From an uncultured Spirochaetota bacterium (GTDB lineage Bacteria > Spirochaetota > Brevinematia > Brevinematales > JAOACQ01): 64,000 nucleotides of DNA. The position numbers and the translations under genes were made by a program. The DNA lies in contig CAWAOD010000009.1 of NCBI GenBank assembly GCA_963783575.1, forward strand, positions 352,001 through 416,000, written 5' to 3'. Under the pieces are notes generated by a model. The model saw only the letters and a list, made by a program, of their open reading frames with translations, was not told where the DNA came from and did no database searches. Of this stretch, positions 30,133-53,686 are shown one piece after another; the first letter of the stretch is position 1, and every line of letters begins with the position of its first letter.

Positions 30133-30234
30133 AAAAATATTTATGTCCGTTGACCGGCAGAATATTTTTTTATAATATTACTAAGTTTTTTAATAAGTTC
30201 GTATTTTACAAGTATTTTGAAGTAATATATGAAG

Positions 30235-30292
30235 TGCGCATATCACTCCGAAATTAGAGTAATATACGCAATGCGTATATATCGAGTTGTAC
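30235..30292 (+). other. attI-like first recombination junction
   Basis: GTTGTAC at 30286-92 with no matching R'' upstream; preceded by the palindrome atatacgca-a-tgcgtatat (30262-80). Confidence 0.55.
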
Positions 30293-30331
30293 GAAAGAAA
30301 TGCCCAGTAAGTTTATTTTTTGGAGAGTGTT

Positions 30332-31735
30332 ATGAATAAAATAATTATTTTATTATTAGTAATATTGTTTAATATCTTTTTATCTAACAATTTATATTGT
30401 AATTGGTCTCCAGTTGATGGTTCGTCATTAAAACAACCAAGAACAATGCAGCTAATTAATAATAAGTCTATATTTATTGAAAATGAAACAATTTCAATAA
30501 AAATTGAAAAAGAAAGTGCTTTTGTTAGTGTATTATATAAATTAAAAAATACAATAAATAAACAGGATGTTAATGTCAGTTTCCCAGTTGAATATTTATT
30601 AGAACCATATTTTGATGAGTTTAATAATAGTAATAAGGTTGACTATTTCAACGCTTATGAAAAAAGTGCTGATAACTATCAAAAAATAGTTTGCAATGAA
30701 TTATCAATAACAAATAATTTTAATAAAGATAGAGATGAATATAATATAACTCGATGGTATAATGCAAAGCTCAATTTTGTAAAAAATGAACTTAAAGAAA
30801 TTAAAGTTGAATACAAGATGAGTCTCGGTTTTGGAGATGGTATATCAACAATAGATTATTTTGTTAGATATTCACCAAGGACTTTTAAATATTTATTAAC
30901 ACCTGCAAAAAATTGGGGAAATGGGTTAGCCAAACATATAGAAATTAATATGGATTTAAATGATTTAAAAACCAATAATTTAATACTAAATAATATAAAA
31001 TTTCCTGGAAGTAAAAATAAATTTGGAATTTTCCAGGGATTAATAAACATTATTTCCCCAAATAAAACATTAATTAACAATAAATATTATTATAGTTTTA
31101 AATCAGATAATTTCAATTTTAACAATGCAGAAAATATTGAATTGGAATTTGATGTGGGTTCAATTTATAATTCTCAAATAGCATTAAGTAATAGAATTTC
31201 TAATAATCAAATTATTTCAATGAAGTCTTCTTCTACTCTTATAGATAAAAAGTATAGTTATTCAGTTTCTAATTTAATTGATAATAATTTTTCTACTGCT
31301 TGGGTTGAAGGTTCTTCTGGCCAAGGAATCGGCGATTGGGTTGAGTTCACATTTGATAATCCGAAAATAGGTTATATTGGAATTATCAATGGCCTTTTTA
31401 TAAATGAAAAGCTATATTATGCCAACAGTAGAATAAAAAAATTAAATTATTATGTAGAATATAATACAAATTATAATGATCCAAATAACATAACTTTTCA
31501 ACAGCAATATTTAACATATCATACTAATAATTATGAATCTTATGACATTAACTTTGAAGATAAACCTTATTTTAATATTTCTAAGTCAAATTTTTATAGA
31601 GTATTAGAAAGAGTATATGAAAACCCAGATTCTCCATTTCCAATTAAAAAATTTAGATTAACAATAAAAGATGTTTATCCTGGAAAAAGTTATAAAGATA
31701 CCTGTATTTCAGAAATATATTTTTTAAGCAATTAA
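30332..31735 (+). CDS. Cassette 1: secreted protein with DUF4424-like N-terminus and discoidin/glycan-binding C-terminal domain
   Basis: Signal peptide; YLLTPAKNW; NLIDNNFSTAWVEG...DVYPGKSYKDTCISEI. Confidence 0.7.
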   Translation: MNKIIILLLVILFNIFLSNNLYCNWSPVDGSSLKQPRTMQLINNKSIFIENETISIKIEKESAFVSVLYKLKNTINKQDVNVSFPVEYLLEPYFDEFNNSNKVDYFNAYEKSADNYQKIVCNELSITNNFNKDRDEYNITRWYNAKLNFVKNELKEIKVEYKMSLGFGDGISTIDYFVRYSPRTFKYLLTPAKNWGNGLAKHIEINMDLNDLKTNNLILNNIKFPGSKNKFGIFQGLINIISPNKTLINNKYYYSFKSDNFNFNNAENIELEFDVGSIYNSQIALSNRISNNQIISMKSSSTLIDKKYSYSVSNLIDNNFSTAWVEGSSGQGIGDWVEFTFDNPKIGYIGIINGLFINEKLYYANSRIKKLNYYVEYNTNYNDPNNITFQQQYLTYHTNNYESYDINFEDKPYFNISKSNFYRVLERVYENPDSPFPIKKFRLTIKDVYPGKSYKDTCISEIYFLSN

Positions 31736-31759: not shown

Positions 31760-31983
31760 GTACAACATGGCGTACACGTTCCGCTCCGTCCTCACTAGCG
31801 TTCCGGGCGGTGCTCAGGCTTCGCCACATTTCGCTTTGGCACGGATTTTTGCCTGAAATTTATTAAAGAGGGAATATGATGTTTAATAATGACTGTATTT
31901 ATAGAAAAACTTTACGGCAAAGTGGCAAAAACACGTGCCAACCCTGACGGGCCGCGAAACGTCGTGTACGCCTGCCGTTATAT
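31760..31983 (+). other. attC-like site 1 (224 bp)
   Basis: R'' GTACAAC, R' GTTATAT; ggcgtacacg / cgtgtacgcc and ttggcacg..tttttgcc / ggcaaaaa.cacgtgccaa arms; AT-rich loop. Confidence 0.85.
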
Positions 31984-32036
31984 GCAATGCCTTAAATTTT
32001 CTTGTTTTATAAATATTAGTATAATAGGAGGTTAAA

Positions 32037-32531
32037 ATGAATCCTAATGTTAATTTGACATTATTTTCTAAGGATAGTTATCGCTCGACCCGACAAGGGA
32101 AAATGGTGCTTAATTTTAGTGCGCTCCAAATATTTCCCTTATTGTGCCCAGTAGAAGAGTATAAATGGTTCCCAGGCTGGGAATGTATAATGGTATATTC
32201 CAAAACAGGGATTGCAGAGAAAGATGCCGTCTTTTTAACCAAAGAAAAGGACGGTTCTAATATTGTCTGGACAGTTATCACATATGATCCACCCAATTTA
32301 ATTGAATTTAGTATCGTAAACGGTCTGAATTCCGTCGAGAGATTCAGTATTATTTTGACAGAGATATCTCATAAAAGTACTGAACTTGAATGGAAAATCA
32401 TGAATACATCTTATTCAAAAAATAGTATTGAACAAAACAAAAATCAAAATAATGAATCTTTTAATATTTTTTTAGAAGATAGAAAAAAGGAAATGGACTA
32501 CTATCTACGGACAGGGAAAATAATTCAATAA
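32037..32531 (+). CDS. Cassette 2: SRPBCC/START-like protein
   Basis: IFPLLCPVEEYKWFPGW motif; AGGAGG RBS. Confidence 0.75.
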   Translation: MNPNVNLTLFSKDSYRSTRQGKMVLNFSALQIFPLLCPVEEYKWFPGWECIMVYSKTGIAEKDAVFLTKEKDGSNIVWTVITYDPPNLIEFSIVNGLNSVERFSIILTEISHKSTELEWKIMNTSYSKNSIEQNKNQNNESFNIFLEDRKKEMDYYLRTGKIIQ

Positions 32532-32551
32532 TTATATTAATAAGGCACTGC

Positions 32552-32712
32552 GCACAACAGCAAGTCAGCGGTTGCGCTCGAGTACTCGCTCCACCCAAAT
32601 CGCCGGGCTGGTTGAAAGCAATTAAATATGTTAATTTTTATAAATGCTTTTTGATATAATATTTACAGCTTAATTAAATACCGGCGACTTCGCCGACTTG
32701 CACCCGTTGTAC
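32552..32712 (+). other. attC-like site 2 (161 bp)
   Basis: R'' GCACAAC, R' GTTGTAC; gcaagtcagcg / cgccgacttgc and tcgccgg / ccggcga arms. Confidence 0.85.
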
Positions 32713-32822
32713 GAAAATTTCCGGGCCGAAGCTGATGATATTACTTTTCCGGCGTCCTTGCCGGAAAAATGATTTATTATTTAAAATGTATTAGAATTTA
32801 TATCGATTAGTAGAGGTTTTAA

Positions 32823-34160
32823 ATGGCATTATTATCAGAAATTGAATCTGCACTAATGCTTGGAATTACAGTTGAATTATTAAATTCATATACAAAATAT
32901 TGTCCAAAATCTGGCGAAAATGTTAAATTAAAATATAAAATAGTAAAAGGTATAAAACATTTTGAAAAAGATGATATTCTATTTTATCATAAATATTTAA
33001 ACAGTCCGTGGCCTATGCCAAAAAAAGGAGAAAGACCATATATTCCTAAAGCAATCCAAGATTTTATAAAGTTTGAATCACATTATTCCTGTTCAATTTG
33101 CGGTCATATGGATAATGGTGAAATAGCACATATTGAAGCAGTTTCAACAACACTAAATAATAGTCCAGATAATCTTATTTATTTATGTCCAAATCATCAT
33201 ACAAAATATGATTATGGTTACAAACCTAATAGTAATGTTACATTAGAAGAAATTCGTGCTTCAAAACTTTTAAAAAGAAATGCTTTACAAAGAGTGATGA
33301 AATATGAGTCTAATACAGTTAAATTATTAAAAGTTACATTATTAAACATAAAATCAATCAGTGAAAAACTAGCCTTTGAAAGTGATAAAACAATGCTAGA
33401 GATTTATAATGTTGAATTACAAAACATTGTGAAGAATTTACCAGAATATATAGATAAAGCAAATGATGACGCAAAAAAAGATATAAGTTTAGTAAATGAA
33501 AAAGAACTATTATCTAAAAATGCACCAAATTTAATAAAATATTCAAATATAATAATAAAAGATTCTTCTTTGTTCAAAACATCCGTTGACTCAATAATCA
33601 AGATTTCTAACGAAATATTTATTGATTTAGATGAATATCCCTGTCCTCATTGTGGAGGAAGCGGACTAACAGGATTACTCGGTGATATATGTGTTTATTG
33701 TAAAGGTTCTTGTGTAGTCTCAAAGCAAATGGTTAATAGTTATGACTCTAATAAAATTGATGAAGTTGAATGTCCTCATTGTGGAGGAAGCGGACTAACA
33801 GGATTACTCGGTAATATATGTATTTATTGTAAAGGTTCTCGTAGAGTATCTCATAAAAAGTTTGATCAGTATGATCCAGATAAAATCGATGAAGTTGATT
33901 GCCCTCGTTGTGGGGGAAGCGGACTAACAGGATTACTCGGTGATATATGTACTTATTGTAAAGGTTCTCGTAGAGTATCTCATAAAAAGTTTGATGAGTA
34001 TGATCCCGATGAAACCAATGAAGTTGAATGTCCTCATTGTAGGGGAAGTGGTCTATCAGGATTAGTCGGTAATGTATGTAAATTATGTAAAGGTTCATGT
34101 GTTGTAACTAAGATAGTATATAAAGAATATATCAAGAAATATGGAACTATTGGCGATTAA
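32823..34160 (+). CDS. Cassette 3: HNH endonuclease with four DnaJ-like zinc-finger repeats
   Basis: CSICG...EIAHI...NLIYLCPNHH HNH motif; four CPxCxGSG...CxxCKGS repeats with 43-aa (129-bp) period. Confidence 0.85.
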   Translation: MALLSEIESALMLGITVELLNSYTKYCPKSGENVKLKYKIVKGIKHFEKDDILFYHKYLNSPWPMPKKGERPYIPKAIQDFIKFESHYSCSICGHMDNGEIAHIEAVSTTLNNSPDNLIYLCPNHHTKYDYGYKPNSNVTLEEIRASKLLKRNALQRVMKYESNTVKLLKVTLLNIKSISEKLAFESDKTMLEIYNVELQNIVKNLPEYIDKANDDAKKDISLVNEKELLSKNAPNLIKYSNIIIKDSSLFKTSVDSIIKISNEIFIDLDEYPCPHCGGSGLTGLLGDICVYCKGSCVVSKQMVNSYDSNKIDEVECPHCGGSGLTGLLGNICIYCKGSRRVSHKKFDQYDPDKIDEVDCPRCGGSGLTGLLGDICTYCKGSRRVSHKKFDEYDPDETNEVECPHCRGSGLSGLVGNVCKLCKGSCVVTKIVYKEYIKKYGTIGD

Positions 34161-34224
34161 AGCCTCCGCCGTCCTGGGCTCCGGCTTTTTGCTTAAACAT
34201 TCGGCCCGGAAAACATCGTACAAC

Positions 34225-35978
34225 GGCCTTGTAGAAAAAGTTAATTTCAGGTAATAATCCTCCATTCCCAAACAGTTTGTTTTTTTTGATCTGTCTGGAA
34301 TTACTTTATTTATATAAAACCGGGCTGAATTTACCGGCAAAGCTGCTTTTATTCCATCACTATGCCATTATATCCCTCCATAGACCTGAATTTTCCCGAT
34401 ATTGTGCACAGTATTATATAATACCCATTGAATATTCACTTTTCCCTTTCCCCTCAGCGTAAATCGATCCATACCTTTACATGCCCTTATATTCCCGAAT
34501 ACAGGCTCAACTATAGCCATTCTTTTCGCATAAAGCTTTCTGCCTTCAGGTGTATCTATGAACTTTCTCATTTCGTCCGAGTAATGTCTGTTATCCGCAT
34601 TTAACGGCCTTTTTGGCTATATAGTAGCTCTTATGGAACCTCCGTGTTCCCAAGGTTGTTTGATTTTATTTTAATTCTTCAGGAAGTCTTTCTGGAATGG
34701 ACAATTACGGCAGGCCGATAACCGGCACATATACTTCGCATATGTAATATGATTCACCGTATAGTTATATCTGAACCTGAGTTCCTCTCCTTTCTTGCAT
34801 ATATAAACATTATTTTCCGGATCATATTGAAAATCATCAATTGTATACTGCCCTTTCTTCGCAGGCTTATGTCTGTCAGCGGTTTCAAACCTGCAATCGC
34901 GCTTCCTGAAATTCGTATCCGGGATGACCGGTTTCATACCGTTTTGCGAAATATATTTCAGGTTCTTTTCGCTGAAATAATTGGTGTCCGCGGTGATTAT
35001 TTTATCCTTTAAATCTTTTCCCAATTCTACTTTTGCTTTACGGATCATCCCTTTCAGGAATTCCCCCTCAGACCCGCTCCCAAAAGCTTCGGGATATACC
35101 ACAACCTGATACTTCGAATCCACTACAGAAAGTCCGTTGTAGCCCTGGATAACACCATGTGAACTCTTTATTTTCGCACTCTCGTTGTCAGTGACATTGG
35201 ACTGCTTTTCACCATGCCGTGCCTTGTTTTTGGGTTTTTCACTTTCCAGAAACTTTTCTATCTTTTCAGCTTTCTTTAAAATCTTCTCGATCCGTGCCAG
35301 ATCTTTTTCCTTATCCTTCTCAGGAAAACCGCCGTCCTGATCACGCTTTTCATGTTCATCAAGCATTTCCTTAACCAGGTTTTCCAGCTTCTCTTTTTTC
35401 TTCTTCAAATCCTTAAATGTTCCGCTCCATTCCTTTGATGCATTTGACGATAGTTTGCACCCGTCCAGCGCGAACATATCCCCGCCTATGAGATTCAGTT
35501 CGTCACAAACCATCAATATATTCAGGAATACGGTATTTATCTCATTTTTCATCGAAGAAACAAAATCGGCGATTGAAGTAAAGTGCGGTATTGAATTGGC
35601 GGAAATGGCTTTGGCTATAATATTCGTTTTACACAAATATTCGATTTCACGTGATGTAAAAATACCGCGGGAATAGCTGTAGAGTATTATCTTCAGCATA
35701 ACCCGCGGATTATAGGCCGGGGCACCGGTAGCATCGTTCTTATACTTATTCTCAAAGATTTTAAGATCAATTCTGCTGTCAACAAGAAAACTGAGTGTAT
35801 ATTCAAATGTTCCCGGTATAATCTGCTCATCGAATGAGACAGGTATGAGTTCCATTTGATCGTAATTAACTTTCTTATGTCTTGCCATAATTGATTTCCC
35901 CTCTTGATTTTATTTACAATATATTTTAAAGTATAACCGTTATTTTGTACATGAATGACGGACTTTTTCTACAGGCTC
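34225..35978 (-). mobile_element. IS1182-family element B, full-length copy
   Basis: Imperfect 17-bp IRs (ggccttgtagaaaaagt / actttttctacaggctc); flanked by an AAC direct repeat. Confidence 0.88.
34368..35888 (-). pseudogene. IS1182-family transposase, frameshifted into 34671..35888 and 34368..34571
   Basis: GAPAYNP, LDGCKL, ADTNY motifs; C-terminal KRMAIVEPVFGNI lies in a different frame. Confidence 0.8.
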
Positions 35979-36399
35979 AACAACAGCTTAGCGTTCCGTT
36001 CCTCGGCGTTGCGACGCCTGCGGTACTCAGGGCTGCGCCCACATTTGCCTTTGACACAGTTTTTGCGTTATAATATTTGAAGGAAAGTTTTATGAGAAAT
36101 AATAAAATTTTACACTTTAAGGAAGCATTTACACAAAAAGGCAAAAACTGCGCCAATCGCTGACACGAACGTCAAACGTCGCCAAGCTATACCGTTATGT
36201 GCAATACTCGCGTTCGATTTAATAAATATTTATAGGGCGATTTAATTTTGCTTCTAAATTTTTTTTGATATAAAATAATACTTATAAATTTCAACTTTTT
36301 TTTGACTTTATTCTACTTTCTCATATAGAATATTTGACAGATTAAAATTAAAATATAATTATAAAAATAAGTTAATTGTAAAGTAAGGAGGATATTATT

Positions 36400-36819
36400 A
36401 TGATAAGTAAATCATTTTCAACAACAACTAAGAAGGTTTCAAAAGAGCAACTTTGGAAGCTTATGTCCCACATCAATGATTGGAAAAAGTGGGATAACAC
36501 AGTTGAATATTCTGAACTTCAAGGAGACTTTAAAACTGGATCAACATTTATTTTAAAACCTAAAGAAGGACCAAAAGTAAAAATAAAATTAATTGAAGTA
36601 AAACCAAATAATTATTTTAAAGACTGTACTATATTTCCTTTGGCTAAAATGTTTGGAGAACATTGGTATGAGGAAACGTCTGATGGCGTAAAAATTACTG
36701 TAACGATGACTATAAAAGGTATTCTGTCCTTTTTATGGTATAAAATAGTTATGAAGGAATTAGTTGAACATCTTCCGGAAGATGTAAAAAATCAAATTCA
36801 AGCTGCATATAAGTTATAA
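36400..36819 (+). CDS. Cassette 4 gene 1: SRPBCC/polyketide cyclase family protein
   Basis: LWKLMSHINDWKKW motif; AGGAGG RBS. Confidence 0.8.
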   Translation: MISKSFSTTTKKVSKEQLWKLMSHINDWKKWDNTVEYSELQGDFKTGSTFILKPKEGPKVKIKLIEVKPNNYFKDCTIFPLAKMFGEHWYEETSDGVKITVTMTIKGILSFLWYKIVMKELVEHLPEDVKNQIQAAYKL

Positions 36820-36873
36820 TTTATTTGCACTATAATTAGAGTAATCTAGAAGATTTATAAAAGAGGTATTAAT

Positions 36874-37305
36874 ATGAAATATTGGATTAATACAGTTTCA
36901 AAAGATCATGTTATGATTGGTAAAAAAAATGGAATAGTTCAAGCCAATCATGGAAAATTATCACCATTGAAACGATTAAAAGTTGGAGATCAAATAATTT
37001 ATTATTCGCCGAAAACCTCATTCGAAAATGGTGAACCTTTAAAAGCATTTACAGCAATTGCAGAAATAATCGATGAAAAAATATATCAAATAGAATTAAG
37101 TGATGACTTTAAACCATATAGAATAAATGCTAAATATTTGGATTGCAATGAAGTTAAAATTGAACCTCTGATAGAAAGTTTAAATTTTATTAAGAATAAA
37201 AAATCTTGGGGTTATATGTTTAGATTTGGATTATTTGAAATAACAAAACATGATTTTGATTTGATTTATTCGATGATGAAAAAACAACGCGAGTACAGCA
37301 CATAA
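36874..37305 (+). CDS. Cassette 4 gene 2: EVE domain protein
   Basis: YWINTVSKDHV...QANHGK...GDQIIYYSP...WGYMFRFGLFEI; stop codon lies within R'' ACATAAC (37300-06). Confidence 0.88.
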   Translation: MKYWINTVSKDHVMIGKKNGIVQANHGKLSPLKRLKVGDQIIYYSPKTSFENGEPLKAFTAIAEIIDEKIYQIELSDDFKPYRINAKYLDCNEVKIEPLIESLNFIKNKKSWGYMFRFGLFEITKHDFDLIYSMMKKQREYST

Positions 37306-37604
37306 CGGCCTTGTAGAAAAAGTTAATTTCAGGTAATAATCCTCCCTTTCCAAACAGCATGTTTTTTTTGATCTGTCCGGAATCACTTTTTTATATAAAA
37401 CCGGGCTGAATTTACCGGCAAAACTGCTTTTATTCCATCACTATGCCATTATATACCACCATATGGAAATGTCAAGAGTTTTTCCCATATCTGCGCTCGG
37501 GTAATTTCCCACCCCTTCCACAAGAGTATTTCCCATATGCTTCACAAGAGTTTTCCCCATACCTTCCACGTGAGTATTTCCCATAGTGAGGAGGCAAAGA
37601 ATGG

Positions 37605-38354
37605 TTACTCAACCTCCTTATTCAAATTTTGTATTCTGTAAGATTCTCCGCTCAAGTTATAAATATTTGAATGATGTAAAAGCCTATCCAGAAGAGCGGT
37701 TGTCATAATCGGGTCTCCCATCATTTCAGCCCAATCCTGAAATCCCTTATTCGATGTTATCACAATTGATGTCTTTTCATACAATTCACTTACAAGACTA
37801 AAGAATAGATTTGCCTCCTTCTTTTCGATAGGTGTGTAACCTATCTCATCAATGATTAATAAGTGTGACTTCATCATCCGGTTCAGCCTGAAAGCAGAGC
37901 TTCTCTGGATGTCCGCCGTTTTCAGAAACTTAATGAGAGTAGTCATCCTTTCAAAGCAGACAATATATCCCTTTTCAACTGCCCGGATTCCGATACTAAT
38001 TGCCAGATGCGTTTTCCCCAGCCCCGGAGACCCAAAGAACAACAGGTTATGATGATTATCAATCCAGCAGAAATCCAATAGCTGTGAAACATCCATTTTA
38101 GATATTCCATTCACTTTTTCAAAATTAAAACCTTCCACATCTTTGCGGACCGGGAAGTGTGCTCCTGCCATATTCCGCTGAAAACGTTTTTCCACTCTAT
38201 AATTCAATTCCAGAGAAAGCAGCCTCTGCAGAAAACTCAGATAAGACTCTTTTGCCTTTTCAGCCTCACCAATTTCCTCATCAATCCGTTTTATCATACC
38301 CTTCAACCCGAGAGTTGTAAGCGCAGTTATGATTTGTTCTCTTATCTTCAACAT
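37605..38354 (-). CDS. istB: IS21 helper ATPase IstB
   Basis: GSPGLGKTHLA, IIDEIGY and ALLDRLLHH motifs. Confidence 0.95.
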   Translation of the reverse strand: MLKIREQIITALTTLGLKGMIKRIDEEIGEAEKAKESYLSFLQRLLSLELNYRVEKRFQRNMAGAHFPVRKDVEGFNFEKVNGISKMDVSQLLDFCWIDNHHNLLFFGSPGLGKTHLAISIGIRAVEKGYIVCFERMTTLIKFLKTADIQRSSAFRLNRMMKSHLLIIDEIGYTPIEKKEANLFFSLVSELYEKTSIVITSNKGFQDWAEMMGDPIMTTALLDRLLHHSNIYNLSGESYRIQNLNKEVE

Positions 38355-39901
38355 TGCCGGCCCCCGATGGAGTCACAGAAACTCTGGTATTTCCCGATGT
38401 CTGATTTAGCTACTTCAAGATAGTGTTCAGGATTCACTGAAGGCCTGACAATCTTTTCAACATTCAAGGGTATTTCTGCCTTTTCTGTTATAAAACAGTT
38501 CAGGTAATTATCCCACAAATCCTTCATGGAATAACTATCACTCTCCAGGCAGTTTGAGATCGCTTGTGTAAGCTTCCCGGTATCAATTATCTTGTCCCTG
38601 AAGTATTTTCTTCCGGAAAGACATTGGTCCCTTACATAACGATTGAACTTCCTGAAATTACATTCAAGAAAATCCTTCCAGCCGGGAATATCAAAGTACC
38701 CGCTTACTTCTTCTTTCAATAACTGCACAGTCTTTCCCATTTCCCGGATCATTGACCTGTTGGTTACAATCTGCCCCGGAATCACTGAAAGCCGGTATTC
38801 GGCGATTTGCTCTCCCGTTATCCTGTCAAAGACAAAAAGCCGACTGCCCGTCTTGTAGATGTCCACCGAACCGTTCCTGTATTTTTCGGGAATATCATAC
38901 TGGCTTGCATCAACTGCGATCCGGCATTTATCGCTTACACTGCGCTCTTCCCTTGCTCCTATCCTGTCTTTACGGAATATCGAATTCCTGACAGATTGGA
39001 GATATGGTCTTTCCGTTTCAATCTCTATCAGTGGTATTTTCATTGTAGCCTGGGATATTCTCCCGTTGGCTTTTCTTTCCAGCCATTTCATCAGGCTTTC
39101 TTCCGCTTCCATTAAACTGTTGAACTCCCGGACTGAGAAGAAACCGTGCTTGATGAATTTGACTACGTTTTCAATCTTTCCCTTACTTTCCGGGTCAGCA
39201 GGTCGGCACACATACATTTTAAGACCCATTTCCCCGATGAAATACTGAAAGTCTTTCGTGTAGATGATATCGCCTGAGTTCTCACTCGCAACCATCGTGC
39301 AGTCCTGATCGATGACAAGTTCATGCGGTATCCCGCCCATATATGCGAAACAGTCCAACAGATGATTGATAAGGTCTTCTGTCCGGAATGGCCTCTCCTG
39401 GAGGGCCGCATACTTAAAACGACTGGCGGATAACACCGCGGCAAATATGTAATACCTTCTGCCATATCTGTCGGTATATTGACCGAAATCAAGCTGGAGC
39501 TGCTTTCCATATGGCATGTCAGGCACTTTTGTGTAATACCGTCGCTTTTCATTCAAGGTAAGCTGCCCGCTTTCAATCAGGTAATGTACGAAATTCCTCA
39601 TCGTATTTTCATTCGCCGGTAGTTTGCCTTTTACCTCCAATAAATAGTCATACAAAGCAGACATATTCAGCCGGATGTAATCATTCTTTTCATATACTTT
39701 CAATATGTCTGTTTTTATTCCTTCGAATTCTTTTTCACGGAAAGAGAATTCCATCAGGCTTTTCTGGTATTCGGAATCGTTCATAGCCCAATATTTTCGG
39801 ACTGTCTTAATATCTATTGACAGTTCCCGGGATACACCATTTTTACTTTTCCCCAAAAGTTTCAGTTTTTTTATGTCCTGATACATAATATTTTTCACCA
39901 T
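38348..39901 (-). CDS. istA: IS21 transposase IstA
   Basis: N-terminal HTH; QLDFG, IDQD and SKGKIENVV motifs. Confidence 0.95.
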   Translation of the reverse strand: MVKNIMYQDIKKLKLLGKSKNGVSRELSIDIKTVRKYWAMNDSEYQKSLMEFSFREKEFEGIKTDILKVYEKNDYIRLNMSALYDYLLEVKGKLPANENTMRNFVHYLIESGQLTLNEKRRYYTKVPDMPYGKQLQLDFGQYTDRYGRRYYIFAAVLSASRFKYAALQERPFRTEDLINHLLDCFAYMGGIPHELVIDQDCTMVASENSGDIIYTKDFQYFIGEMGLKMYVCRPADPESKGKIENVVKFIKHGFFSVREFNSLMEAEESLMKWLERKANGRISQATMKIPLIEIETERPYLQSVRNSIFRKDRIGAREERSVSDKCRIAVDASQYDIPEKYRNGSVDIYKTGSRLFVFDRITGEQIAEYRLSVIPGQIVTNRSMIREMGKTVQLLKEEVSGYFDIPGWKDFLECNFRKFNRYVRDQCLSGRKYFRDKIIDTGKLTQAISNCLESDSYSMKDLWDNYLNCFITEKAEIPLNVEKIVRPSVNPEHYLEVAKSDIGKYQSFCDSIGGRQC

Positions 39902-42863: not shown

Positions 42864-43301
42864 ATGAAAAGGGAAATTAACGTATTAGGTGGGAGTGAAG
42901 TTTTAGACAACGGCCCCTTTTATCACGGGACGAAAGCGGATTTGCGGGTTGGCGATTTGTTGACTGCTGGGTTTCGGTCAAATTACAAACCCGAAGTCAT
43001 TATGAATCACATTTATTTTACAGCCTTGGCTAATGGGGCAGGACTTGCCGCAGCCTTGGCCAAAGGTGATGGACGTGAACGTGTATATATAGTTGAACCG
43101 ACGGGTAGCTTTGAAAATGACCCGAATGTTACGGACAAAAAATTTCCTGGTAATCCAACACGCTCATATCGCACTAAAGCGCCTTTGAAAATCGTCGGCG
43201 AATTAACAGATTGGGTGAGACCAACGCCTGAGGAACTTCAAAAATGGCGCGTAAAGTTGGCTGATATCAAAACGGATTCGAAAGCAGAAATTATTAATTA
43301 A
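42864..43301 (+). CDS. arr: NAD(+)-rifampin ADP-ribosyltransferase
   Basis: GPFYHGTKADL, HIYFTA and YIVEPTG.FENDPNVTDKKFPGNPTRSYR motifs. Confidence 0.95.
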   Translation: MKREINVLGGSEVLDNGPFYHGTKADLRVGDLLTAGFRSNYKPEVIMNHIYFTALANGAGLAAALAKGDGRERVYIVEPTGSFENDPNVTDKKFPGNPTRSYRTKAPLKIVGELTDWVRPTPEELQKWRVKLADIKTDSKAEIIN

Positions 43302-43394
43302 AAACATGGAAGAATTATAATGAATTCCTGGCGGCATCCTTGCCGGTAAAATAAGGAACCAGTTGTTCGTTATAAATTAATTGGAGGATTCATA

Positions 43395-44945
43395 ATGTTA
43401 GACTTATGGAGAAGATTCTGGATTATTCTTATTATTTTTTTCTGCTTCACGGTACCGGTTATAGCTAATGATACCAATGATTATTACCCCAGTACTACAT
43501 GGCGGACTTCAACTCCGGAAGCGCAGGGTATTGATTCGGGACATCTGGTCAGGATGCTGGATTATATACAATCGTATGATATAAATTTCCACAGTATTAT
43601 AATTATCCGTCATGGATATATTGTCATGGAAGCTTACGCAGAACCTTTCGGAAAGAACGTTATCCATACCCTTAATTCATGCACTAAAAGTGTCGTATCA
43701 TCTTTGATCGGTATTGCTTTAAGAGAAGGCTATATCAAAAGCATTGATCAAAGGGTCGTTGATATATTTTCCAATCAGAATATAAAAAATATGGATGATA
43801 ATAAACGGCAGATAACAATTGAACATCTGCTGACCATGAGTTCGGGAATCAACCAACCGGATGTAGATGGGCACCCCCCGGAAAATTATTTTAAAGCCTC
43901 CAAATGGAACCAATATTATCTTGATCTCCCAATGGCAACACAACCAGGTAAATTATTTGCTTATGATTCCTCAGGGGTAAACCTTCTTATGGCTATTTTA
44001 CAAAAAACCAGCGGTATGAAAAATTCGGATTTTGCCGATAAATTTCTTTTCAAGCCGATCGGTATTACCAATTATTATTGGCGGACTGATCCGCAGGGAG
44101 ATTATCTCGGAGGCTTTGGATTGGCTTTAACTCCAATGGATATGGCCAGGTTCGGTTATCTATATTTAAAAAAAGGAAATTGGAATGGAAAACAGATAAT
44201 ACCCGCCGATTGGGTTGAAATATCCATGTCCAACAATATTGATACATCAATGTGCCCTTTTGCGATTTCTACAAATAAAGGATACGGTTTCCTGTGGTGG
44301 GGGCTTCAGTTTGGTGGTTTTACAGCGATGGGCGCTGGTGGACAATTTATAATGGTCATGCCTGAAAATGATATGGTAGTTGTAGTTACCTCCGGTTTTC
44401 CCCCTCAAGATTTTCAAACACCATTAATTTATTTAGCTGAACAATTCACAAACCAATCCTATGTTTCCAGCAGCAGTCTCCCCGAAAATCCAGAAAAACA
44501 GGCGGAACTTGCGGCCGCCATCCGGAATTTTGGGAATCCAACAAATGATACAGATTTAGTTATTCCGGAAATGGCGAAAATAATTTCAGGGAAAAAATAT
44601 ATTCTTGATTCAAATCCGGGTAACTTAAAATCTATTATGGTGAATTTCAATGGTTCCAACGAATGTATTTTCGATGCAGAATATCCGGATAACCATTTTA
44701 AAATAATAATCGGATTGGACGGGAAATACCGTGAAAATAGATATGAAAATTTTTTATATTATAAGGAGTTCTGGCGTGGTAAATGGACAGGTGAAAATAC
44801 TTTTGTAGCAGAATATTACAGACCTTGTGTTGACGGTAGTAAAATTCAATTTACTTTTCAATTCGATCAGGATAAGCTCAAAATGGCACAAGAATCAACG
44901 GTTGGAGAATGGTGGCGGCATTTTACAGGAAAAATGGAACAATAA
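43395..44945 (+). CDS. Secreted serine hydrolase (beta-lactamase/NylB-like fold)
   Basis: Signal peptide; SCTK, LLTMSSG, FAYDS, DMARFG and GYGFLWW motifs. Confidence 0.88.
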   Translation: MLDLWRRFWIILIIFFCFTVPVIANDTNDYYPSTTWRTSTPEAQGIDSGHLVRMLDYIQSYDINFHSIIIIRHGYIVMEAYAEPFGKNVIHTLNSCTKSVVSSLIGIALREGYIKSIDQRVVDIFSNQNIKNMDDNKRQITIEHLLTMSSGINQPDVDGHPPENYFKASKWNQYYLDLPMATQPGKLFAYDSSGVNLLMAILQKTSGMKNSDFADKFLFKPIGITNYYWRTDPQGDYLGGFGLALTPMDMARFGYLYLKKGNWNGKQIIPADWVEISMSNNIDTSMCPFAISTNKGYGFLWWGLQFGGFTAMGAGGQFIMVMPENDMVVVVTSGFPPQDFQTPLIYLAEQFTNQSYVSSSSLPENPEKQAELAAAIRNFGNPTNDTDLVIPEMAKIISGKKYILDSNPGNLKSIMVNFNGSNECIFDAEYPDNHFKIIIGLDGKYRENRYENFLYYKEFWRGKWTGENTFVAEYYRPCVDGSKIQFTFQFDQDKLKMAQESTVGEWWRHFTGKMEQ

Positions 44946-46570: not shown

Positions 46571-46586
46571 ACACGCGCGGAAAACT

Positions 46587-46620
46587 TCGTACAAACACGG
46601 CATACCTGTTCCGCTCCGTC
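46587..46620 (+). other. Left half of an attC-like site, truncated by an IS110 remnant
   Basis: tcgtacaaacacggcatacctgttccgctccgtc aligns with the start of site 1 (tcgtacaacatggcgtacacgttccgctccgtc). Confidence 0.7.
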
Positions 46621-47358
46621 TATGATAAAAGTCTAGTTTTAGTAAAATTTTAAACTACTTTTTTCAAAAAGTTATTATAATCTTTCAATTTATATAAGTG
46701 AAATTCTTTATCCATATAATAAAAATATTCATTTTTCTTCAGCATATGATATATTGCCACTAAAACTTTTCTTACAATAGCAATCCTTACCTTGACAGAG
46801 CTTTTACCATTTCTTTTCTTTTCATAGAACAATCTGAATTTATCATATGTTTTAAAATGGACTATGGATCCAATTAATAGATTGACAGATAATATTCTTC
46901 CCTGTTTATTTATTCTTCCAATTCTGGTTGTTTGGTTTGAAGAATCTACTCTTGGCGCTGACCTTAAATATGAGCAAAAGCATTTTGCATCAGCAAACCG
47001 ATTGATATCCGCAACATCAGACATAATTCCGATTGCACAAAATGGACTGATACCTTTGATGCTGGTTAATATTTCTATCTTATGTCGGAAATACCTTTGA
47101 TCAAGATTTCAGATTTTACTTCCTTTAGTGAATTTGAAACCGTCTCTAAATTCTGATAAAGTAATGTGATTTCCATTTTAACACTCAAATGTAATTCCAA
47201 ATTTAATATAGATTCTTTGATCTCTTTTCTTTCCAGGCTTTCTTTTGGATATTTATATCCATTCTGCTTCAATAGGGAATGCATACGGTTTTTGAGCATT
47301 ACAACCTGCTTTCTAAAAAATGATAAGTGGTAAATAACTGGCGTATTTCCCTGACTTC
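46621..47358 (-). pseudogene. IS110-family transposase remnant (5'-truncated, frameshifted)
   Basis: LKNRMH, LTSIKGI, DINRFADAK.FCSY..AP...SS and AIVRK motifs; end reads gacttttatcatag on the minus strand. Confidence 0.8.
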
Positions 47359-48518: not shown

Positions 48519-48825
48519 AAAAATATACCTCCAAATATATTAAGCTTATTTTAGAAATAACTGTATAAAAAGTCAATACGGAGTTATCCGTATTATTGAC
48601 TTTTTATAAATATTTAACTTAACTTTATATATAATACTTTTGAAAATAATAAAATCTGAAATAAATAAAACAAATATTTGCACGATAGCTAGCAGAGAAA
48701 CAGATCCTCATTGGGGAAAATTCAAACTCTCTACCCTATGCCCATTCCTCTGCTTCTGCTCTGTCCGTATTTTAATTCAAAAAGATTTGGAAACAATTCA
48801 TAATATTAAAGCTTTTAAAGAAAGA

Positions 48826-48885
48826 TGCAACAACTGCGACAATCGCTGACGGGTAAGGCAAACGTCACCAAACATGCCGTTATAT
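48826..48885 (+). other. Right half of an attC-like site
   Basis: gcaacaactgcgacaatcgctgac...aaacgtc...gccGTTATAT aligns with the right arms of sites 1 and 3. Confidence 0.7.
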
Positions 48886-53338: not shown

Positions 53339-53515
53339 AACCGCTCAATCCTCCAATTATATAATAAAATCCGATTTATTTTAAAGAATCAAATATAGGC
53401 AGTTCCATTGGATAAAAAGTGTAGTTTAAAGAAGGTTTTTGAACTGACCATATTATAATATGAAACTTGATTATAATAAAATTTTTATAATTCCTGAGTT
53501 ATGATTGAAATTTTG

Positions 53516-53630
53516 CAATTATCTGTAGCTAATTTTCAATTATCTGTAGCTAATTTTCAATTATCTGTAGCTAATTTTCAATTATCTGTAGCTAATTTTC
53601 AATTATCTGTAGCTAATTTTGCAATTATCT
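53516..53630. repeat. 21-bp tandem repeat (caattatctgtagctaatttt) x5 plus a partial unit
   Basis: Five perfect units at 53516-53620, with no spacers. Confidence 0.95.
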
Positions 53631-53686
53631 TGGTCATTATCTAAAATCTATTATTCTTAAATTCAATTTTTTATCCGGATAATGTC

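Follow-up and report, generated by a model that had tools for sequence, protein, structure and literature searches.

Short open reading frames with their own start signals in the apical loops of attC-like sites of a Spirochaetota genome

The question raised by this locus is why a recombination site should contain its own translation start. The locus lies in a 64,000-nt stretch of DNA from an uncultured Spirochaetota bacterium (contig CAWAOD010000009.1, positions 352,001 to 416,000; hereafter the window). It consists of a cassette array whose attC-like sites have an enlarged apical loop, in which a Shine–Dalgarno (SD) sequence and an ATG open a short open reading frame (mini-ORF). Nearly every long attC of this one genome carries a predicted translation start of its own, in at least seven different sequences. 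Cassette arrays are usually read as promoter-distance gradients; the loops suggest a recombination site shaped to control the expression of whichever cassette lands next. The window is part of contig C9 of the genome, G000, of which C4, C5, C10, C12, C13 and C16 are further contigs. G011 is a genome of the same family, other G numbers are comparison genomes, and L numbers are loci fetched from other genomes.

A putative translation start inside the recombination site

Attc-like site 1 (31760..31983, 224 nt; + strand, as are the other sites and site remnants, the loops, mini-ORFs, cassette genes and attI-like copy of the window) consists, in order, of the core R'' (31760-31766), a branched left arm, an inner stem, the loop, a right arm and the core R' (31977-31983). 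Its AT-rich apical loop (31853..31924, 72 nt) contains the SD sequence GAGGG (31868-31872). Site 3 (35979..36200, R' 36194-36200), whose R'' is stranded at 34218-34224, has a 74-nt loop (36067..36140) with the SD sequence AAGGA (36080-36084). Pairing with the 16S tail of the genome was calculated at −6.9 kcal/mol for site 1 and −5.7 kcal/mol for site 3. The initial annotation had described ORFs of 72 nt each at 31876-31947 and 36092-36163, and their coordinates, peptides and upstream motifs were all confirmed.

The site 3 mini-ORF (36092..36163) has 23 codons; its stop lies 31 nt short of the crossover and 236 nt from the next gene. Site 1 has two ATGs, the first (31876, giving 23 codons) 3 nt and the second (31879) 6 nt from GAGGG. 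In a homologous site 1 loop in G011 (83% identical) the SD, the second ATG and the frame are kept, and CTT replaces the first ATG. Because the second ATG is better spaced and is the only one kept in G011, the site 1 mini-ORF is probably 31879..31947, with 22 codons and a stop 30 nt before the crossover. The proposed conservation of a 23-codon length was not borne out, as lengths across loop types range from 20 to 27 codons. A broken right half-site at 48826 (48770..48885), comprising a partial loop, the right arm, TGA at 48847-49 and R' at 48879-48885, is open to that TGA without a matching ATG, as had been reported; its only in-frame start candidate is TTG at 48787. A second frame in the site 1 loop (31889-32035) has an SD-less ATG and runs for 48 codons across the crossover to a stop 1 nt before the ATG of the next gene; it depends on the neighbouring cassette.

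To define sites across the genome, arm motifs and arm hidden Markov models were used, because a generic attC detector was too noisy. A right-arm-only profile search of G000 gave 32 matches. Intact arms with a long loop were found in 17 copies of one type (type A), three copies of type B, type E, site 1 and site 3, and in two type-A arm pairs with unrelated loops and both arms intact (C13:207664 and C9:534334). Three matches were loopless, and the remainder were degenerate or cut by insertion sequences (IS). Site 2 (32552..32712, 161 nt; two copies), with a 69-nt AT-rich loop, entered the census from a separate comparison. The loops measure 65-77 nt, and the same arms occur with several unrelated loops. 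Because the same arms also occur loopless, the loop appears to behave as an exchangeable insert.

A loop was scored as passing if it contained an ATG, an SD pairing at ≤ −4 kcal/mol with the 16S tail of its own genome, and a frame open into the right arm; the stricter final count required the SD window to lie wholly inside the loop. The SD threshold was fixed after sites 1 and 3 and types A and B had been seen, before most loop types were known. One representative was scored per loop type. The site 1 homolog of G011 was omitted from the final count as not independent, and five degenerate sites were left unscored (C10:85374, C9:121507, C9:632100, C4:99557 and the half-site at 48826). C16:113143 was dropped as a negative loop type after it proved to be an IS end. 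L077b and L066b, candidate passing types in which the arm contributed to the SD, fail the stricter rule.

Seven of the eight G000 loop types passed, far above the 0.24 expected from shuffled loops. Site 2, which lacks the combination of SD, ATG and open frame, was the sole negative type. With sites 1 and 3 left out, five of six types passed (0.18 expected), and on the reverse strand none of 17 did. Dinucleotide shuffles passed at 1-5% per passing type, and 98 of 3768 real intergenic 70-mers passed when placed in the site 3 arms. The SD strengths of the mini-ORFs (−4.5 to −9.3 kcal/mol) bracket the genome median of −6.3 kcal/mol. We regard C13:207664 and C9:534334 (which has GGAGG) as the cleanest out-of-sample cases, because they were found by arm sequence alone. 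The mini-ORF loop is a real, genome-wide and non-random feature.

These results bear on the explanation that the loops are AT-rich, G-skewed spacers for DNA structure, or internal promoters, with SD and ATG arising as a by-product of composition or of a few related lineages. In its favour, most loops have more G than C on the top strand whether or not they hold an ORF, site 3 is overlapped by a TTGCCT-18-TATAAT match, and most long loops outside G000 lack the signal. However, composition-preserving shuffles and intergenic 70-mers passed at only 1-6% against the seven of eight observed, promoter-like matches at sites 1 and 2 were below chance (2 vs 4.7), and new types found by their arms alone passed. 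We consider this explanation quite improbable, and a pure chance origin of SD, ATG and frame appears largely refuted.

The frame is also fixed on each arm type. On the arms of site 1, site 3 and type B, only a single frame of the three reaches a stop ahead of the crossover, and it is the one used by all three types; the three loops on type-A arms (type A, C13:207664 and C9:534334) likewise use one frame. If independent, this agreement would arise about 1 in 27 times 1 in 9. The stops lie 28-34 nt before the crossover in six of seven types, across two arm families, and 8 nt before it in type E. Among the 17 type-A copies, 16 keep the frame and 16 keep the ATG, the remaining one having TTG there. 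The 1-nt length differences of type A all fall upstream of the SD, and one copy has lost an upstream in-frame TTG.

The initial annotation had also pointed to an equivalent TGA. A shared stop is indeed present, but the right arm forms a small side hairpin whose T-N-N-C loop contains it, and it is mostly an arm feature: the same position holds a stop triplet in 6 of 12 distinct loopless sites. The conserved stop was therefore rejected as independent evidence. The long-loop sites L068 and L088, without a stop at this position, also lack an ORF. In a degenerate type-B site (C10:85255-85410) the stop has been lost, and the frame runs to a TAA overlapping the ATG of the next gene.

Substitutions in the mini-ORFs were 3 synonymous and 8 non-synonymous in type A, 2 and 7 in site 1, and 0 and 8 in type B (5 against 23 in all), giving a pooled dN/dS of 0.8 with a Fisher P of 0.58 against neutrality. 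The peptide thus appears to evolve neutrally, its sequence being unimportant, as for ORF-11 and ORF-17 of class 1 integrons. A functional small peptide, the other reading offered at first, is highly improbable. In its favour, the type-A peptides are similar across the 17 copies and begin with a hydrophobic stretch. Besides the neutral substitution pattern, the peptides of different types are mutually unlike, their C-terminal halves are dictated by the hairpin arm, and a Pfam search of the mini-ORF peptides gave no match. The translation-module reading fared better at the level of sequence, the signal being enriched, strand-specific, fixed in frame and recurrent in loop types not seen before.

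attC-like sites of a non-canonical integron-like system

The sites are attC-like sites of an integron-like, non-canonical system. Their inverted cores R'' and R' have the invariant AAC and GTT triplets of attC with loose outer bases (GTACAAC/GTTGTAC), and the end of each cassette is complementary to its own first bases; cassette 1, for instance, starts with GTTGTAC and finishes with GTACAAC. The segment 31977-34225 is identical at 2248 of 2249 positions to C5:472319 onward. Since this shared stretch follows a different attC on C5, with identity beginning at CC|GTT, the crossover at G|TT and the orientation are demonstrated and not assumed.

The bottom strand of site 1 was predicted to fold at −48.2 kcal/mol (z −4.8); z was −3.1 for site 2 and only −1.7 for site 3, because an IS has split its R''. 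The predicted folds have the paired R and L regions and unpaired central spacer of attC hairpins. Bulges were present in sites 1 and 2, those of site 1 not clearly at the canonical extrahelical positions. The sites are branched and 161-258 nt long, outside the usual attC range of 57-141 bp given in the available parts of PMC5027507 and PMC5371416. The arm skeleton CACATTT..CTTTG.CA ... GCCAA ... AAACGTC ... CGTT is common to named Leptospira and Spirochaetota records. The Leptospira-type cassette repeats (L052-L056) share it, but have apical loops of a few bases, in which no 70-nt loop or mini-ORF was seen. A search of Rfam over 29500-50500 gave no match at E≤1, and a known RNA family (riboswitch, leader or small RNA) was rejected on this basis.

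A tyrosine recombinase gene heads an array on C5 (G000:C5:457129-458190) and is co-oriented with it. The protein carries an additional N-terminal domain. The insertion seen in five canonical IntI sequences is missing from the array-head recombinase of G000 and from its intact relatives in G011 and G005, and at 1e-30 the TIGR02249 (IntI) profile matched nothing in G000. A frameshift and a premature stop disrupt the G000 gene; relatives stand at array heads in G011, G005 and G346 (loci L089 and L182). An attI-like site adjoins the recombinase gene: a conserved, non-hairpin sequence ending in ATCGAG|TT, copies of which head other arrays. The window copy (30230..30293, crossover G|TT at 30286/30287) has no recombinase beside it in the window, and is 94% identical over 67 nt to C5:115038 and 92% over 65 nt to the copy at C5:458192, immediately behind the array recombinase. 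Cassettes accompany at least six attI-like copies (30230-30293 of the window, C4:7135, C5:115038, C5:358976, C9:129800, C13:218559 and C16:120180), recombinase-less where checked. One recombinase may thus serve several attI-like platforms in trans.

As far as the available text of PMC5027507 and PMC5371416 describes them, the attC sites of sedentary chromosomal integrons (Vibrio cholerae repeats, VCR) share with the present sites the R''/R' cores, a paired outer stem, a bottom-strand hairpin and the G|TT crossover. Homogeneous repeated sites and toxin–antitoxin-like and defence-like cassettes are also common to both. Unlike the VCR type, the present sites are longer and branched, their loops are G-rich on the top strand rather than the bottom strand, and their recombinase, which has no IntI insertion, points the same way as the array.

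Possible roles of the loop

Our favoured explanation, to which we give an even chance, is that the ~70-nt apical loop is an exchangeable, peptide-independent translation-initiation module that relieves polarity. Ribosomes would load at the loop SD and ATG on the cassette transcript and read 20-27 codons, whatever their sequence, across the right side of the inner stem. A stop about 30 nt before the crossover would leave the module self-contained within its own cassette. The ~300-nt untranslated, heavily folded gap between cassettes would in this way be cut into pieces and the RNA hairpin partly unfolded, with the expected result that Rho-dependent termination or attack by RNases would be reduced and the next cassette would be expressed more strongly.

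That translation would matter for its own sake is suggested by the retention of start signal and frame, the freedom of the peptide and the position of the stop inside the cassette. The loop ATG usually lies 130-250 nt beyond the end of the previous gene, opening of the ORF would remove 29-50 kcal/mol of predicted RNA structure, and a rho gene is present in G000 (matched in pieces, below cut-off); for these reasons, relief of polarity or RNA decay appears to fit best. SD pairing was found in 70% of 2979 long G000 ORFs. The likeness among the seven passing loop types (mean score 31) is close to that of unrelated AT-rich gene starts (26 ± 8.5), so the signal arose repeatedly or outlived the remainder of the loop. 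Direct termination–reinitiation coupling with the next gene is unlikely, because the gap from stop to next start has a median of 89 nt (21 of 24 sites with a call; the reinitiation range is 2-62 nt) and the next gene usually has its own strong SD. The one value of 3 nt reflects a spurious start in the arm.

Precedents exist in class 1 integrons. Short attC ORFs enhance the translation of what lies downstream (Jacquier 2009, summarised in the available parts of PMC8876359 and PMC11511950), although the same two sources call such cases anecdotal. According to the available text of PMC11511950, an untranslated 98-nt 3' untranslated region lowers downstream expression 4-fold, and translating it partly restores expression. 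For the class 1 attC ORFs, as for those described here, translation and not the peptide is thought to relieve the negative effect of the hairpin. The class 1 ORFs, in sites of 57-141 bp, are described as being reached by reinitiation from the stop of the preceding gene. The present mini-ORFs, unlike them, have their own SD and lie in an exchangeable loop of ~70 nt, with 130-250 nt between the previous gene and the start. They comprise seven mostly unrelated sequences, and about 90 nt separates their stop from a next gene that itself has an SD.

A second precedent is given by ORF-11, ORF-17 and ORF-18 of attI1, which encode non-functional peptides behind a proper SD inside a recombination site (available text of PMC8876359); here, too, SD and start codon lie inside the site. 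ORF-17 is self-contained, and the same source gives a proposal that it stabilises mRNA even where the gene has its own SD. The attI1 ORFs occur once, in the platform, and serve the first cassette only, whereas the present module travels with each cassette. Judged by the parts of the literature available to us, what is new is a dedicated, exchangeable loop bearing a ribosome-binding site (RBS), and what is known is that short attC ORFs aid translation in class 1 integrons. The available text of PMC9892861 (phage clusters of attC sites lacking an integron integrase), PMC8352920, PMC9024848 and PMC3184786 contains nothing on starts in attC loops, and no description of RBS-bearing attC loops in spirochaetes was found in the literature covered, mostly open articles in their main text.

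Several points weigh against the translation module. Predicted accessibility of the SD in the RNA is modest or poor (unpaired probability 0.03-0.61, with site 3 lowest), some 90 nt behind the mini-ORF stop would be left untranslated, and some of the following cassettes come with promoter-like sites. In class 1 integrons, deletion of attC mattered in a minority of cassettes only (available text of PMC11511950). The type-A copy at C9:180220 is frameshifted by a 7-nt deletion, and the lack of nonsense changes (0 seen vs 1.7 expected) is not significant. Loop types show a slight excess of similarity (P ~0.05); as they may share ancestry, the nominal P values are too small and overstate independence. 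Long loops without a mini-ORF occur in site 2, L068 and L088. Outside G000, the only passing loops were the site 1 homolog and one of nine other types (0.52 expected). Among the 27 G011 sites listed, a long loop is present in three and absent in 24, and Leptospira-type sites have no loop of ~70 nt. Loops of this size in Bacteroidota keep no ATG, and loopless relatives commonly have top-strand loops that are rich in purines but lack ATG. The feature thus appears dispensable, most relatives lacking the loop.

Loops of ~70 nt outside the genome were observed in attC sites of other lineages, including Bacteroidota plasmids (L022, L077, L155, L160 and L175-L178), where they are G/T-rich and have no conserved start; their size may reflect a separate constraint. 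The 40 regions beside canonical IntI genes across the phylum had mostly short Treponema-type sites or no array, with ~70-nt loops only in L018, L022 and L029. No copy of type A was found in 401 other genomes, where 14 weak matches were short and AT-rich, and the L018 loop had no copy in sets of 5 and 122 other genomes. No arrays with the right-end pattern were found in G001-G010, and motif matches in G001 that were considered as sites proved to be IS sequence. Pattern scans of IMG/VR gave no match or unrelated matches, and plasmid and phage BLAST searches with the G000 sites gave none.

The exchangeability of the loops also fits a different origin, in which fixed-size gene 5' ends, captured or vestigial and comprising leader, RBS and the first 10-15 codons, entered the hairpin apex. 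Capture might have occurred during cassette or attC formation, or from 'hairpin-first' cassettes with a gene starting in the loop; such loops would be copied along with attC and need not be usefully translated. The likeness among the seven passing types, close to that among unrelated gene starts, is in line with capture. Capture would explain the fixed size together with the unrelated sequences, and the identical arms that are loopless or carry several unrelated 65-77-nt loops. A 38-nt segment with the type-A SD and start lies outside any attC at C16:32302-32265 (minus strand), where it is joined in frame to a 58-codon ORF. The ORF directly precedes a hydrolase-like gene, and the cassette concerned follows an attI copy.

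Random capture, however, leaves unexplained the fixed frame per arm family and the stop distance. For none of the loops was a source gene found in G000 or the fetched loci, and codon usage downstream of the ATG falls between that of real starts and that of off-frame sequence. Other lineages have ~70-nt loops without any start, and the IMG/VR scans and phage BLAST searches revealed no related phage site. Capture is possible, if unlikely. A combined form, in which the apex takes up ~70-nt gene 5' ends time and again but retains only those whose frame ends within the arm, we hold to be distinctly unlikely. If true, it would make the loops both a portable translation-start module and a fossil record of attC and cassette assembly, a long-standing open question, and fixed-size exchangeable loops may in any case hint at how attC sites are built.

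Translation could also serve recombination, if ribosomes prevent R-loops or alter supercoiling and thereby tune bottom-strand extrusion and cassette excision. Long terminal loops lower recombination from double-stranded DNA (available text of PMC5027507), the ORF ends just before the L'/R' stem, and the sites, at 160-260 nt, exceed the usual 57-141 bp (PMC5371416, likewise). The array recombinase of G000 is nevertheless broken, though the type-A copies still look recently spread, and we consider this role very unlikely. For the translation module, natural pairs are available: the same arms with and without a loop, and one downstream cassette that follows a loop-bearing site in one place and a loopless one in another. 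A loopless type-B site lies at C5:472170-472325.

Array content and minor observations

The array in the window begins behind the attI-like copy with cassette 1 (gene 30320..31735, 471 aa, with a C-terminal F5/8-type domain, PF25302). Site 1 is followed by cassette 2 (gene 32037..32531, 164 aa, no Pfam family, own strong SD), and site 2 by cassette 3 (gene 32823..34160, 445 aa), which encodes an HNH domain and repeated CXXCXGXG zinc fingers. The four CXXCXGXG repeats of this gene are 129-nt tandem units, and its copy on C5 is truncated by a stop. Behind site 3 lies a two-gene cassette (36400..37305) encoding SRPBCC-like and EVE-domain proteins; it ends at the R'' sequence CATAAC, followed by an IS1182-like end at 37307. 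Further downstream, an orphan attC-like left arm (46585..46622; 86% identical over 36 nt to the site 1 left arm) is cut by an IS110-family remnant, and a PF02371 match adjoins it.

The element that splits site 3 (34225..35978, − strand), which we take to belong to the IS1182 family, has DUF772/DDE matches and was inserted right after the AAC of R'', with AAC duplicated. Such IS1182-like elements target the attC R'' box repeatedly (34225-35978 and 37307 in the window; contigs C4, C5, C9, C10, C12, C13 and C16). Of 16 left ends, 15 follow the ...AAC of R'', and all 10 right ends are followed by AAC, a 3-bp duplication; the elements are always oriented opposite to the cassettes. Among the literature matches listed for IS1182 and attC, none was, by title, on R'' targeting.

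The bottom strand of the inner stem (31925-31941, 36141-36156 and Leptospira-type sites) reads TGGC(A/G)(C/T)-N5-TTGC, which we take to resemble the sigma-54 −24/−12 promoter consensus; rpoN is present in G000. The motif occurs in 88 of 127 matched sites, with a spacing of 9 in 35 and of 11 in 4, the site pattern having been chosen on the motif. Because the spacing varies across sites, the likeness is probably coincidental. A sigma-70 promoter starting from the invariant TTGACT of type A was rejected, as inspection gave no −10 element at 16-18 nt.

Elsewhere in the window, an arr-like rifampin ADP-ribosyltransferase gene and a serine beta-lactamase-family gene (42864-44945) lie between two 207-nt direct repeats (42605 and 44994). 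A 494-aa DDE transposase is present in three copies (7446, 16752 and 50204), an IS21-like pair occupies 37605-39901, and a 21-nt tandem repeat was observed at 53491-53641.

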